A DNA stretch of 64,000 bases from Octopus vulgaris (Eukaryota): the NCBI GenBank assembly GCA_951406725.2, contig OX597828.1, positions 57,412,001 to 57,476,000 of the forward strand, written 5' to 3'. Within the stretch, counting starts at the first letter, position 1; each line of letters begins with the position of its first letter. The notes beneath the pieces are model-generated. The model was not told the origin of the DNA. It saw only the letters and a list, made by a program, of their open reading frames with translations, and made no database searches. Shown piece by piece: positions 6,355 through 38,990 of the stretch. A program made the position numbers and the translations under genes.

Positions 6355-7737
6355 TATGTTTGACTTTTGCTTTATATTTGTACAAGTTGGGTCCAAGTCT
6401 CACCCAGAGACCTCAAGAGACAACAGGGTTGGAGGTTCATGTTGTTGTTATGCCTAGTGTGCCATATATTTGGGGGGGGGGTGTTGTACTAATGAATGTC
6501 TAAAAAAAGTTGTTGTTTTTTTTAAACCGAAAATTATGTTTGTTTTAAACCTTGAGATTACATAGAAAGTATTTTGCGTAGGATATGAGCAGTTCCCATG
6601 AGCACTATCTTTTGAATTTCTGCCATTTTGGGGTTTCCTGGTATCTGAGTTAGGTAGCTACCAGCCCCTTTTGCTATCATTCCCAGGGCACCTATGACAA
6701 CAGGTATTGTTTTAGTCTTCAGGTTCCACATTTTGCTGATTTCTATTTCAAGATCTTTATATTTGCTCAGTTTTTGGTAGGTCTTGACAGATACGTTTAT
6801 ATCGATTGAGACAGTCATATCAATGAGAAGGCATGTTCTTTGTTTGAAGTCTTTCAATATGATGTCTGGCCTATTTGCATCTATCTTTCTGTCAGTTTGA
6901 ATGGTGAAGTTCCAGAGGAGTGAGATGTGGTCAATTTCAAGACTGGTGGTGGTTTGTGTTCCCACCAGTTTTTTTCATGGGGCAAATCCAGGTTTTTGCA
7001 GATTACCCAGTGAATATATTGTGCAGCTCTATCGTGCCTGTTGAGATACTCTGTAGGCGCTAGAAGACTGCACTTGGAGACCACATGGTCAATGGTTTCA
7101 TTTTGTTGCTTGCATACACGACACGTTGGACTGCTTCTGATCTTTAATATGTTGGCCTGGTAGTTTCTTGTTGGTAGGCATTGATCTTGAGCTACTATGA
7201 TTAACCCCTCTGTTTCAGATTTTAAGCCAGAGGCCATTAGCCATTGATGGGTCAGGGCTTTGTCAACATCTGCATTATTTGCTCTCTTTGGGTATTTGCC
7301 ATAGAGAGGTTTTTCTTGCCATTTATTATTCAGAATATCTAAGGTCGCAGATTTAGCACGGGTTTTCATGCGCTTAGTTTTTCTGTGCCTGTTTCTTGTA
7401 TGTCTATCTCTAATTCCGAAATTTGTTGTATTCGGAATTCACTTAGATATTCCTTTGCCTGTTTTGTTACTGAGTATGATGCTTTCTTGTTTTCATGTTT
7501 TGAGACAAGTTTTAACATCCAGTCCTCAGAGTTTTTCAGGTAGGTGTCTAGGCCAATTGTAGCAATCTTCATTGTTATTGCCAGTTGTAAAAGTCCACGG
7601 CCTCCCTCTTTTCTTGGCAGATAAAGTCGTTCTGTATCTGCCTTAGGGTGGTGCATTCTATGCATTGTCAACAGTTTTCGTATTTTTCTCTCAAGATTAC
7701 ATATTTCAGTAATTGACCAGTTAACGATATTGAAACT
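6354..7737 (-). mobile_element. 5'-truncated R4/Dong-like non-LTR retrotransposon (thumb region, CCHC knuckle, restriction-like endonuclease), two frameshifts
   Basis: Motifs HHPKADTERLYLPRKEGGRGL, CRVCKQQNETIDHVVSKC, RHD and RPDIILKD...LIDMTV...KLSKYKDL...PVVIGALG are spread over ORFs 7366-7671, 6881-7369 and 6558-6965. The 3' UTR is 6354-6557. Confidence 0.92.
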
Positions 7738-8031: not shown

Positions 8032-8658
8032 GTATATATATATGTACCGAAGAGATTATGTAAAATGTCATACGGTGTAAAGCTAAACTCAAAAGACGTT
8101 AAAACACTCTTATTTTCTGTCACTTATTTCGTTACAATATTAACTATGTTTCAATGCTCACTTTCATTTACCGAATATGAATTTGTTACCTGATTGTATA
8201 CTTCGACGCATCCTCATATGCTTGCATTTCATATAATACCACGTAACCTTAGATATATAATTCATAAATGTCGCTGTTTACAGTTGAATCTTTTACGGCA
8301 TTAATTTTACGAAATTAATTGCTGACCAAATTACAATTATGAAAGTTTGATAATCTCATGCTTGAAATTAAAATCCAGTTTTTTTTTGCAAAAACAATAA
8401 CTCCTTTCATTGCTAATTTGTTCAAATACACGGGAGCATAAAAATGGCACATGTAATTATTTAATATCAATTAGATATCTCTATTAGCGATCGGTACTAA
8501 TTTTAAGAAGTACAAGGCAAATTCTATAAATATTTCGATAACACTGAAACTCCGTCGTGATCATAGAATGTCCAAGGAAATATATAGGATATATGAAAAA
8601 TAACAAGATAAAAATTATTTGTAAATTAACAGACACGGCATAAATATTGTTGGTCTTG

Positions 8659-9837
8659 TTAGTCAAGCGGTGTAAATAACAAACCTAAAAACAATATTGA
8701 AATTATAACCAATAATACGATGGAAATTTTTAGAAATATGTCATCCAGTCTTACGTGATCGGAAATACAGTTTCTCTTTATCTTACTTTGAAGTTCATTA
8801 TCATTAAGAGTTTGCGATTTTACCGTGGAAATTAATGAAGCATCTGCCACTTTGTTATTTTGAGTTTTGTTTTTATTTTCTTGAGATGATTGATTAACAT
8901 GCAACTTGCTTATAACCACAGATCCAAGTGTGACGATACCACTAAACATTGACAATAACATCAAATATAACATGAAAAGTGAAGGATATTTCGAATTTTT
9001 TGGTGTATTCTTATCGATTTGAACAAGATACAAGACGTTTGATAAAAATATTGTCATTGCTAGAGAAACTTTCTCCCCTGATTCAGGAGGCAGAAGAAAA
9101 ACAAAAAGAGTTAAAATAGTCATCATTACTGTCGGAATCAACATAGCTACGATTCCTATGGTGATTTTACGATGTAACTGTATTACCACTGATGCGTGAC
9201 TGATTTGATCGTTTGTGACACTTGCTTCACCATAGAAATGAATATCCCACTTGTAGCTTTCTGTAATATTCATATTCTTGTATTTAACATATTTAAATCG
9301 TGTTTCGTCGGGATAATGTAAAGCAACACAAATGTTTATTTCACATTCATGGCCATCAAATGGATACGTGTATGCGTTCACTAGGCAATATGTCTCCATG
9401 TACTTAAGGGACCACAACTCCACTGTTCCGTCAGAGTGAACGATTACTTCGCGATTGATATCGCTATTATCTTCCTCATTGATTGAATTACACATCATCA
9501 GAGATGGCGTCCATATTTGATTTTTTGGTATATACATATGACTAATGTTGTTATATTCCAATGGATCCCAGGTCAGATATTCATCAGTCCACCATGGGTT
9601 GAACACATACCGAGCAATCAGTACGTTATTTACGAAGTCCAAATCATACAGCGTGTGAAGATTCAACTCAGCATTTATCTCAACAGGTGTAGACAGATTA
9701 GTAACAGGTCTTATATCTTTTGTATAATTCAAAAGCAATGTTTTTTTCAATCGTTCTTCATCCTCGTGCGTTGGGTTGGAATTTACTATCAATATCATTA
9801 AACTCAAGCTAAAAGTCAAATATTTCATGAGCTTCAT
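8659..9837 (-). CDS. Single-exon Cys-loop ligand-gated cation channel subunit: atypical nAChR-like, cephalopod chemotactile receptor (CR) family, 392 aa from the first ATG
   Basis: Uninterrupted ORF (track start 9855 is TTG, first ATG at 9837, TAA at 8659-8661). It has a signal peptide, RPV, W-D-L-WDP and IWTP motifs, the Cys-loop CLVNAYTYPFDGHEC (C-x13-C), four TM helices and M1-M2 linker LPPESGEKVSL. There is no vicinal CC in loop C. Confidence 0.93.
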   Translation of the reverse strand: MKLMKYLTFSLSLMILIVNSNPTHEDEERLKKTLLLNYTKDIRPVTNLSTPVEINAELNLHTLYDLDFVNNVLIARYVFNPWWTDEYLTWDPLEYNNISHMYIPKNQIWTPSLMMCNSINEEDNSDINREVIVHSDGTVELWSLKYMETYCLVNAYTYPFDGHECEINICVALHYPDETRFKYVKYKNMNITESYKWDIHFYGEASVTNDQISHASVVIQLHRKITIGIVAMLIPTVMMTILTLFVFLLPPESGEKVSLAMTIFLSNVLYLVQIDKNTPKNSKYPSLFMLYLMLLSMFSGIVTLGSVVISKLHVNQSSQENKNKTQNNKVADASLISTVKSQTLNDNELQSKIKRNCISDHVRLDDIFLKISIVLLVIISILFLGLLFTPLD

Positions 9838-10624
9838 TTTCTGTAATATCTTCAAGAGTTAAATATTGGTATATACTTGTGTTAACGGTTCCTAGTAAAT
9901 ATTGACTTGTATCAATTTTGTAACCCTTTTTCTACACTAAATAACTGTTGTACATGTTATTATTGATACAACAAAATAAGATATATAGAGTTTTCGAGAA
10001 CACGGCAGATTTATAGAATGCATCAAATACACAAATCTCACTTTATAGGCACTATATAAACAACGAGTTATAGTACAATGCAGTGTATTTATTTTTAAAT
10101 GAGTTGTGAAATGTTTAATACTGCATGAAGATGTTATTTCTTTTGTCTGGTTAAATTGATTATTAAAATAAGATGTAAATAAGAATATTAATGTTCCACT
10201 TGAAGAGACAGGGATATTTAATCATTTAATTATATATATTTCAATCAATGTTCTGATAGAAGTATTTATGTAAGTCAGCTTTTATACTTATAAGGCTGCG
10301 AATTCGAATATATATCGGGTGTTATAACCCCGTTCACATAGCAATATCACATGGAAAAATTGAAGAGATTATTTGGTGCCAAACATGTTCGTGGTAACGA
10401 GGTGACTCGACAATCTGAAATAAATAAAAGTAGGTAGATAAACATGCAAATCAATGCTTGAAAATCCATTATCATTTACTAACGTTTCAGCTACATAAAC
10501 AAGGCAACAAAGGTACTTACAGCAAGATATGCAGAGGAATAACAGCTTAAATTTCGTTGAACGTTTTCATGCCATTGAAAAAAAAACTATCATCTTCAAG
10601 TACCTATTTTTTTTTACATTGATT

Positions 10625-26099: not shown

Positions 26100-26865
26100 A
26101 TTAAGGTAAACAAATTTCCTTTTTATTCTCAAATGTTCTCTCCTTCATTTTCTACAATGCTCTTCCATCTATCTTCTAACATTCACTTGTCCGTGGCGAA
26201 AAGTACTACTCCAGTACTGTTCTAACCTCGTCCACGGAATTCATAATTTCTCCGTCCAAATGATTTTGAAGACTGCAGAGTAAATGATAACTAACCGGAG
26301 AAACGTCCGACTAGTATGGTGGGTGGGGCATCATTTCCTATACAAACTGCTCCAGCCTGTGGAATGTCATTTTCGCAGTTTGTCACCTAACATTATCCCG
26401 AGGGAAGAACACCTTTAGTCTTGAAACCGAAGATGGTCGATTTGTTTCTAACTCAGGCTTGAATGTTTGTTTGAATTGCCAAATCCAAGCTTTTCTGCTA
26501 GTTCCTCAATAGTTACGATCTTCTAGGATGATGCTTGTCCTCTAGATTCTAGTTTCCGACTCAGAATTTCTGGAACCACCGTTGTCTCTAGCTTACGCGT
26601 ATTGCCCGATCCCCATATATTGCATTGATATCCCTCGCACTTTCTGTGATGTTGCCTTTATTGAACTCATAAAGCAAAATATGCCGAATATGCTCCTTTG
26701 TCACTTCCATTATAGCTTCGTTAAAACAACTATTGAAATCGAACTGCACTCTTCGAAGAGTAAATTGACTACGTGTTTTTATAGCAAGTTGATGGTGGTA
26801 GTTTATCCCATCCCCTCCGACTTTTAGTTCATGCAATTGTAAATGCCGTATTATTCATGTGAGGA

Positions 26866-37105: not shown

Positions 37106-38990
37106 ATTATGGGTGGCTTATCTGGTATTCTTTGAAGGAATCTATCCAGACTGTTTAAAGTTGATGGGATCCTTTTCCTCTTTGATCTCCCTCGGGACAA
37201 TGTTAAATAGAGCAGGGCCTGTTGAGGAAAAGAAATTATGTTGCAGTGTACATGTATGTTGTGATCTTGAATTAGGCAGGGGACGTATATCCCGTGTTCC
37301 AAGTCTTGGATGAACCTTGAAGCTAATGTTTAGGTCGTTTGGGCAAAGTTGGCGGTATATTTTCCACATCGTACAAATGATGTACCGCTCACGGCGACGC
37401 TGGAGGGAGTAAAGTTTCAAGGCTTTAAGGCGATCCCAATAATCGAGAGCAGCCATGCCTTCAATTTGTTTAGTGAGTGCTCTCTGGGGTGACTCAATTC
37501 TGGAGATGTTTTGTCTTGTGTGAGGAGACCACAGTGGGCAGCAGTATTCAAGGTGTGGCCGTAAAAAGGAGGAAAAAAGTGGTATGATGACACCTTGTTT
37601 TCTGGACCGGAAAGTTCTTAAGATCCAGGAACTCATTCTACGAGCTATATCGACCTTCTTGTTGATGTGTGCACTCCAACTGAGATCGTCATCAACAATT
37701 ACACCCAGGTCTCTGATATTGTTAGAGACTGTGAGCGGTTCCCCTGAAGGAAGAGAGTATGGTTGTTTTAGTGAGGAATTTCTTCCAAAATGCATCAGCT
37801 CAAATTTTCCCTCATTCAGTTGCATTTTGTTTCTGTCTGCCCATTGACTCACAGCATATAGATCAGACTGGAGTTGAGTTCGGTCTGCTTCTTCATTGAC
37901 GATTTGCTGGAGCTTAGTGTCATCAGCAAATATTTTCACTTTGCAGTAATGTACGACACTGGAAAGGTCGTTTACGTAAATTATGAAGAGTAGCGGACCC
38001 AAAATAGTTCCCTGGGGAACACCGCTGGTGACTTTTGCTGGGTTTGAGTGGACTCCATCAACTACAACATGTTGTGTTCTATTCGCCAGGAAATACTTAA
38101 TCCAGTGTAGAACTTTTCCACGGATTCCAACATTGGCCAATTTTGAGAGTAGGATGTTATGGTCTACCCTGTAAAACGCTTTACTGAAGTCAAGATATAT
38201 GACGTCAGAGTTCGAACTTGTTCCCAAGGCTTTGAGTACATCTTCAATGTGGTGTAAGAGCTGTGTTATACAGTCCCTGCCACAGCGAAAGCCATGCGGA
38301 TTTGCATTTAGGAGTTTGTGGGTCTCCAGGAAGTCAGCTATCCTTGATCTTAACACTCTTTCAAACACTTTAATGATGTGGGAGGTGAGTGAGATTGGGC
38401 GATAGTTGACTGCGAGGGATCTGTTTCCCTGTTTGAAAACCGGGATGACCGACTGGGATAGAAACTGTTTCGGTATATAACCTGCGTCTAACGAATTTCT
38501 CCAGAGGTTGGTCAGAGGGACTGCAAGTTGGTATCTACATTCCTTCAGGAGACTAGCGGGAAATCTATCAGGGCCTACAGCAGAGTAATGTTTGACCTCA
38601 TTTATTGCTGCTACGATGTCAGTGGCAGTGAAGGTTATGTCTGAGATTTTGTATTGGGAGTCAACTTCGTTCGTTTCCCTTACGTCAATATCAGTGGGAA
38701 CACTAAAGACAGAACAGTATTGTTTCTGCAGTATTTCTGCCATTTCTTTAGCATCATATTGGGGAATGCCGTTATCATCAATCAATGGCCCAATGGGTGA
38801 GGCAGTGGTTCTATGCTTATTTGCATAAGAATAGAACACTTTTGGGTTCTGTTTGATGTTTTTGATTACCCATTGTTCCTCCACAGCTCTTTGATTTTCA
38901 ATGGAGGTTTTCATGTTGGTCTGCAGATGAAGTTTTTCCAGCTCTAGTCTTTTCATTGTTGTTGAATGTGGATGTTGCGTGTGGGAATAT
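36934..38990 (-). mobile_element. 5'-truncated CR1-type LINE, reverse transcriptase ORF (604 aa open, 37142-38956)
   Basis: Motifs NYRPISLTS, HGFR, YLDFSKAF, SGVPQGTILGPLLFIIYVNDL, FADDTKL, RDLGVIVD, RPHLEYCCPLWSP and LYSLQRRRER. No endonuclease is present and the 5' end abuts (TA)n. Confidence 0.95.

Follow-up and report, generated by a model that had tools for sequence, protein, structure and literature searches.

What does the single intact receptor gene at this locus detect, and how did it come by its ligand pocket? The window, by which we mean the whole 64,000-nucleotide stretch analysed here, carries at 8659..9837 on the minus strand a complete single-ORF chemotactile receptor (CR) subunit of 392 aa, L001 (protein P0001), which was recognised by its ORF, Pfam matches and structure model. 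Octopus bimaculoides has a cluster of 26 sucker-expressed CR genes, in tandem like the array of L001, according to PMC9068888. Ligands have been assigned to only a few of the roughly 26 octopus CRs, namely CRT1 and, with chloroquine, CR840 (bioRxiv 2025.03.03.641191). In bioRxiv 2025.10.28.685082 it is posed as an open question whether divergence of CRs between species serves mate or prey recognition. In this study, we believe that L001 is a CRT1-clade CR subunit that probably underwent gene conversion with its paralogue L002, and that its pocket has since been diverging fast, likely under selection for a new ligand.

The ORF runs from an ATG at 9837 to a TAA ending at 8659, with 392 codons and 0 internal stops, which bears out the first-pass annotation in its description of a complete pLGIC subunit in one ORF. 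The Pfam domains Neur_chan_LBD (E 2e-31) and Neur_chan_memb (E 1e-13) were both matched. All features lie on the minus strand. The signal peptide (residues 1-20, 9778..9837), whose cleavage was placed by the mature start of CRT1 in 8EIS, is followed by the extracellular ligand-binding domain (residues 21-224, 9166..9777, by alignment), in which the Cys loop C151-C165 occupies 9343..9387 (alignment). The membrane part consists of the M1 helix (residues 227-248, 9094..9159, AF2 model), the M2 pore helix (residues 255-277, 9007..9075, alignment and AF2 model), which is preceded by a GEK motif with E at -1' and has L at 9', the M3 helix (residues 287-312, 8902..8979, alignment and AF2 model) and the M4 helix (residues 360-387, 8677..8760, AF2 model). 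The AF2 model, for which a 110-sequence alignment was the input, reached a pLDDT of 90.1 and shows a signal helix, a beta-sandwich, M1-M3, a disordered loop and M4; with about 47 disordered residues, that M3-M4 loop is indeed short, as had been noted. Its best Foldseek match was 8EIS, octopus CRT1 (E 9e-42, rmsd 1.5 A, 60% identity), with a TM score by target of 0.96. Cysteines occur only at 116, 151, 165, 170 and 357, so the vicinal cysteines of loop C are absent, again as first described, and loop C is 6 residues shorter in the alignment than in the alpha-type nAChR P0090. The pair C116-C170 presumably forms an extra disulfide, as in CRT1. All 7 invariant columns of the alignment are kept.

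The gene had also been called intronless. This holds for the coding region, as read from DNA; run X1, guessed to be RNA, matched L001 over only 73 bases with 6 differences and was uninformative on it. A conserved splice acceptor directly before the ATG was considered and rejected. The TTACAG found there is shared by L001 and L002 only; because it sits inside the L001/L002 tract described below and is missing at that place in the other 22 genes, no splice-acceptor claim is made.

The family of L001 was examined by sequence search and phylogeny. In phmmer, CRT1 scored E 1.5e-135, squid CRB1 3.7e-39, and the nAChR and 5-HT3 chains about 1e-28 (Torpedo beta 1.5e-28), and the identity to octopus CRT1 is 57%. 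In a FastTree phylogeny of 160 sequences (proteins of 300-520 aa, CRT1 duplicates dropped, no named molluscan beta subunit among them), L001 fell with CRT1 into a clade of 34 sequences (support 1.0, stem 0.45), apart from the canonical nAChR sequences in the tree, and this clade is nested in a 64-member clade with all 24 listed array genes. The earlier reading of L001 as a CR paralog is thus upheld. The alpha-type P0090, which is alpha7-like, falls outside the CRT1 clade. Both features of canonical nAChR alpha subunits, the vicinal cysteines and the aromatic box, are missing from L001: the loop D Trp of alpha7 reads V78, the loop A Tyr C116 and the loop B Trp A172, YxCC is absent, and the last loop C aromatic is I212 when aligned through P0090. 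Since L004 is the CRT1 orthologue (87%), L001 is a CRT1-clade paralogue and not CRT1 itself. We know of no ligand for L001.

The absence of vicinal cysteines would also suit a canonical non-alpha, beta-type nAChR subunit working in acetylcholine-gated channels, and relatives of L001 bear database names such as 'acetylcholine receptor subunit beta-type acr-2-like' or '5-HT3A-like'. We consider this reading very improbable. The non-alpha features are not those of L001: the loop-D Trp that beta subunits contribute is V78 here, Torpedo beta lies far behind CRT1 in the search (E 1e-28 against 1e-135), and L001 is intronless, belongs to the CR clade and sits inside the CR array. Two unusual relatives were noticed on the way. 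L027 (G000 C25:41333390-41334274) lies on another contig; this Cys-loop subunit of 447 aa, encoded by a single ORF, falls outside the 64-member CR clade, lacks YxCC and may belong to the 'CR-like' receptors. The unnamed 987-aa protein P0039 has four tandem Cys-loop ligand-domain repeats followed by one TM domain; it could be a model merged in error or a genuine receptor with tandem domains.

Among the best 50 of 104 genome matches, at least 24 uninterrupted full-length CR ORFs lie within 0.51 Mb (56.91-57.42 Mb of C15), and L001 is the last CR at its end of the array. The next CR, L003, ends 2.2 kb ahead of the window start and lies between L001 and L002, which is 29 kb from L001 at G000 C15:57391377-57392576. 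CR intronless structure is listed as unverified beyond O. bimaculoides in PMC13174522; in the Octopus vulgaris genome it holds, for coding regions read from DNA, in at least 24 CR ORFs. L002 is letter-for-letter identical to a public protein labelled Octopus vulgaris; no exact match was found in the protein collection for P0001 or for 8 of 8 further array proteins tried. The array also contains recent whole-gene duplications, L012/L014 (57.12-57.13 Mb) and L019/L021 (56.91-56.92 Mb of G000 C15), which with flanks included are 93.6% identical over 2.3-2.5 kb. Their ligand-domain pN/pS values are about equal or higher for pN (0.042/0.039 and 0.077/0.065, respectively). CR copies that are incomplete or broken, some of which carry stops and frame changes, were seen as well (L025/L029, L026, L028, and further copies at G000 C15:57338309-57338839, 57121181-57121624 and 57116980-57117306); this is birth-and-death turnover.

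L001 had been put forward as the only supportable host gene in the 64 kb, and as far as tested it keeps that position. Among 103 stop-to-stop frames of at least 75 aa in non-simple sequence, a screen that short exons would escape, 4 passed the Pfam cut-off: L001 and three transposon fragments. These are an open LINE reverse-transcriptase frame of 604 aa at 37142-38956, a zf-RVT fragment at 6881-7369, about 1.3 kb downstream of L001, and a mariner-type HTH fragment at 26591-26854, all on the minus strand. A tblastn search of the window found no further CR fragments, and a tRNA search of it found none. The remainder is repeats, with tandem repeats covering 8483/64000 bases. The 54 kb upstream of L001 (9838-64000) hold no detected CR fragment or other host gene; the array ends at L001, and this region is where any regulatory elements of the gene, shared or 5', would be located.

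The relationship between L001 and L002 differs sharply along the gene. Their DNA is 93.4% identical over 990 nt, against roughly 60-70% in the tail and flanks. Codons 1-312 have 94% DNA identity (57 differences in 936 coding nt) and a pS of 0.086, compared with 0.42 in codons 313-392, and in the control pairs L001/L003 and L002/L003 pS is flat at 0.38-0.40. No other pair has such a pS step among the 276 pairs of 24 listed genes (Fisher p 6e-8; runner-up p 0.0035). We delimited by DNA identity a likely gene-conversion tract common to L001 and L002, which starts about 28 nt before the ATG and stops where M3 ends (8902..9865, minus strand), and in which pS is uneven (0.04, 0.10 and 0.13 along its length). 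The M3-M4 loop and M4 form an unconverted tail (8659..8901, minus strand), orthologous to that of O. bimaculoides XP_052829242 by tree and deletion. In the tail tree, L001 grouped with XP_052829242 (UFBoot 98), with which it has an 8-residue deletion in common, and L002 with O. bimaculoides XP_052829360 (UFBoot 100). In the ligand-domain and M1-M3 trees, L001 was paired with L002 (UFBoot 100 and 98). AU tests on 14 proteins rejected the orthologue tree for the ligand domain (p 4e-6) and for M1-M3 (p 6e-5), and the paralogue tree for the tail (p 2e-7); the other orthologue groups had the same membership in ligand-domain and tail trees. Because the trees of the two gene parts conflict, gene conversion is likely, and we hold it with high confidence over any other route to this pattern. 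L001 has 16 orthologue-pattern sites in its tail and 0 in residues 21-312, and on the latter count we reject that the L001/L002 pocket differences are relics of the old paralogues.

A recent whole-gene duplication, or an assembly error behind the mosaic, would be compatible with the high identity across most of the ORF, but we regard either as hardly credible. The L001 and L002 flanks are about 60% identical and each tail sides with its own O. bimaculoides orthologue, and the true recent duplicates L012/L014 and L019/L021 share more than 2.2 kb including flanks. As to the assembly, the 3' end of L001 is single-copy in G000, a run X9 contig spans the tract end (8415-9051, 7 differing letters in about 637), and in O. 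sinensis XP_029646620.2 the three genes L001, L003 and L002 have their orthologues in the same order and with the same mosaic. Run X7 has doubled depth at 9022-9055, which we do not count as evidence for two identical copies, since this 34-mer also occurs in L005. Run X7 also left a coverage hole over the L001 ligand domain. L005 is a distant paralogue, and its exact 34-mer around the M2 start, common with L001 and L002 (9022-9055), possibly marks a short conversion tract; closer paralogues differ at 2-7 positions of it.

L002 was the more probable donor of the L001 ligand domain, a direction on which the sequence evidence is mixed: UFBoot values are 85 and 55, and donor site patterns are 15:5 in the ligand domain and 2:6 in M1-M3. 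In the simplest reading, the conversion postdates the split from O. bimaculoides and predates that from O. sinensis. The O. bimaculoides pair differs at 46/204 sites in the ligand domain versus 36/80 in the tail, and this greater closeness in the ligand domain hints at an earlier exchange.

After the likely conversion, the ligand domain of L001 did not stay constant between close relatives. Compared with its O. sinensis orthologue, 29/204 ligand-domain residues differ; seven neighbouring orthologue pairs together differ at 23/1391, with 1 to 7 differences each, which amounts to a roughly ninefold excess in L001 (p 5e-14). This comparison covers eight CRT1-clade orthologue pairs, leaving out L006 and L009, for which no O. 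sinensis orthologue was found, and 14 distant genes. L004 and L010, with 7/204 differences each, come next after L001. Elsewhere in L001 the two species are nearly the same, with 0/20 differences in the signal peptide and 2/137 in the TM region and covered tail (ligand domain against TM and tail, p 3e-5). With L002 as the reference, the 29 sites are split into 11 changed in the L001 genome, 12 changed in O. sinensis and 6 with three states. Since the O. sinensis and O. bimaculoides orthologues were compared as proteins from one genome per species, these counts take fixed and polymorphic differences together. Loops A-G, which make up 66/204 sites, hold 19 of the 29 O. sinensis differences (p 8e-5) and 19 of the 26 differences (26/204) between the ligand domains of L001 and L002 (p 6e-6); both p-values are post hoc, the loop ranges having been chosen after the L001/L002 difference list was known. 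Independent of the loop choice, the L001/L002 differences fall at high-entropy sites among 16 other CRT1-clade proteins (p 1.5e-6).

We believe that positive selection is the probable driver of this pocket divergence, as judged from substitution patterns. The case is likely and short of proof, because dN/dS is not significantly above 1 and loop pS is raised. Between L001 and L002, dN/dS is 1.12 in the ligand domain (p 0.51, not significantly above 1) and 0.11 in M1-M3, and pS is 0.143 in loops versus 0.028 outside; the raised loop pS fits patchy repeated conversion as well as selection. At several residues, a run X8 contig agrees with the O. sinensis orthologue. Of the contig's 20 differing letters, the 17 listed comprise 15 nonsynonymous and 2 synonymous steps. 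Its nonsynonymous divergence (15/317) exceeds the divergence of the flank (14/882; p 0.003), and its dN/dS is 2.1-2.5 (not significantly above 1, p 0.15-0.25), or 0.83 if the 3 unlisted letters are silent.

The excess might instead come from old allelic variation or patchwork conversion rather than from new selection, which we consider unlikely while giving it some weight. Deep L001 allele lineages, or repeated short tracts from L002 or from a lost paralogue, would then segregate across close species. It would account for the 23 of 29 sites at which one species agrees with L002, for the uneven pS along the tract, and for a run X9 contig that, in the 40 of 75 rows listed, has L002-type letters at codons 32, 33, 39, 72, 78, 162 and 222 and window-type letters at codons 55, 57, 59, 80 and 119. 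The six three-state sites and the linked signal peptide and tail, with 0/69 differences, argue against it, and the lineage-specific changes interleave (181, 182, 185, 187, 188, 191, 192), so that very short tracts would be needed for a patchwork. It is also conceivable, and in our view improbable, that L001 became redundant after conversion and is drifting under relaxed constraint towards a pseudogene or silent accessory subunit. The ORF is intact in L001 and in the 361 residues covered by the O. sinensis model, none of the 7 invariant columns has been lost, and only those 2 of 137 TM and tail residues differ, even though broken CR copies exist in the array and the ligand-domain dN/dS to L002 is near 1. 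Drift is moreover bounded by the neutral rate: it would yield about 8 nonsynonymous changes in 480 sites, compared with the 29 residues seen, an expectation from mixed sources in which about 1.6% flank divergence (run X8) is set against a RefSeq protein.

Pocket membership was set by alignment to CRT1 and alpha7 numbering, not by coordinates. In bioRxiv 2025.10.28.685082, L153 of CRT1 lines a conserved hydrophobic core, Y39 and L191 form a fast-evolving steroid rim, and Y39Q abolishes the progesterone response. According to bioRxiv 2025.03.03.641191, Y58, W122, F124, F192 and S169 of CRT1 hold microbial ligands, responses to these are lost in aromatic-site mutants, and E104 tunes calcium flux. 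Of the CRT1 contact set Y39, Y58, W122, F124, L153, S169, L191, F192 and E104, 2/9 are kept in L001 (W122 and L153); Y39, Y58, F124, S169, L191, F192 and E104 correspond to N59, V78, L144, M189, Q211, I212 and N124, respectively. N124 in place of E104 would predict lower calcium permeability, unless one of the nearby acidic residues E121, E122, D123 or D126 takes over. By alignment, aromatic residues occupy 1 of CRT1's 8 contact positions in L001 compared with 5 in CRT1, and the L001 pocket has a hydrophobic core (W142/L144/L173) and a polar rim (N55, E57, N59, N80, Q211). L004 keeps 8/9 of the CRT1 contact positions, with M at the steroid-rim L191. Because six CRT1 contacts read N, V, L, M, Q and I in L001, we predict a ligand shift: L001 should not respond to progesterone, and its poorly soluble ligand should carry more polar groups than do the ligands of CRT1 or L002. 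L001 likely detects a different chemical; that its ligand is not CRT1-like seems reasonably probable, and that it is more polar than CRT1's is a tentative suggestion. The pore has changed little. Residues 250-276 equal those of CRT1 except M261, and with M2 nearly that of CRT1 and E at -1', a cation current is therefore expected.

By the Cys-loop and CR biology described in PMC11526382 and PMC10338036, L001 subunits would assemble into homo- or heteropentamers, and a ligand bound between subunits under loop C would open the M2 pore. A poorly soluble chemical met on a surface, and not acetylcholine, would open the channel, and the cation current would depolarise the sucker receptor cell. Knowledge of the family is our ground for expecting that L001 assembles as a pentamer, selects cations (E at -1'), is expressed in suckers and does not respond to acetylcholine. 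The ligand domain and M1-M3 of L001 would have been overwritten by conversion with L002, after which the ligand domain would have changed at an unusual pace, with selection for a new ligand as the likely cause. We further speculated that L001 could be a species-tuned sensor, in which conversion supplied a spare L002 ligand domain and selection re-tuned the pocket separately in each young species, so that it answers to that species' own contact cue, for example from mates, eggs or local prey; we regard this extension as doubtful. If true, L001 would be a candidate chemosensory barrier gene, and L001, its O. sinensis orthologue and L002 would make a natural mutagenesis series for new CR ligands on a near-identical pore.

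Published work already covers the CR family, its array and intronless genes, and diversifying selection on the pocket; the mosaic structure and fast pocket divergence lie beyond the earlier account of this gene. Conversion between paralogues can bias selection scans, and no recombination screen is named in the methods sections examined for published CR selection scans. The word 'recombination' is absent from the main text of bioRxiv 2025.10.28.685082 and 2025.03.03.641191. Our literature search, with the primary CR papers and supplements beyond its reach, found no report of conversion between CR paralogues or of L001 as a species-level outlier; the O. bimaculoides orthologue may already be covered, or recombination mentioned, in the supplements of the primary CR papers (names, trees, expression maps). 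L001 is the clearest outlier of the eight CRT1-clade orthologue pairs that were compared, and the tract together with the ligand-domain excess makes it a sharp, testable case of receptor re-tuning. As its two close relatives have 26-29 mostly pocket differences from it and nearly the same pore, the species-divergence question is directly testable here. RefSeq XP_029646620.2 (P0185, 1061 aa) fuses the orthologues of L001, L003 and L002 and drops their M4 helices, and CR counts and trees built on the O. sinensis annotation miss or garble these three CRs.

Among known receptors, CRT1 (PDB 8EIS and 9E6B; XP_014786442.2) has in common with L001 its clade, fold, single-ORF gene, ligand-domain cysteine pattern and near-identical M2. 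It is unlike L001 in that 4/5 of its aromatic contacts (Y39, Y58, F124, F192), as well as S169, L191 and the vestibule E104, are replaced, and carry-over of its ligands (terpenoids, norharmane, lumichrome, progesterone) to L001 is not expected. Squid CRB1 (PDB 8EIZ) and the nAChR alpha7 and beta subunits have the Cys-loop fold and the GEK cation motif in common with L001 at 27% identity or less, and the W/Y/W/YxCC/Y acetylcholine box of alpha7 is missing from L001 (alignment through P0090). In O. bimaculoides, XP_052829242.1 (P0003) is the L001 orthologue by its tail (84%) and XP_052829360.1 (P0004) is that of L002; a search for a link from these accessions to published CR names such as CR840 found none. 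In the ligand domain, L001 and P0003 differ at 66/204 residues, the highest count of nine orthologue pairs, the other eight having 26-54 differences. Residues 1-361 of O. sinensis XP_029646620.2 (LOC115220613) are the direct orthologue of L001, with the same mosaic and with identical signal peptide and tail. Tandem-array gene conversion has been suggested for cephalopod protocadherins in PMC9068888, where neighbouring paralogues are homogenised, as here. Unlike the protocadherin case, L001 has a sharply bounded tract over its ligand domain and pore, followed by fast divergence of the pocket.
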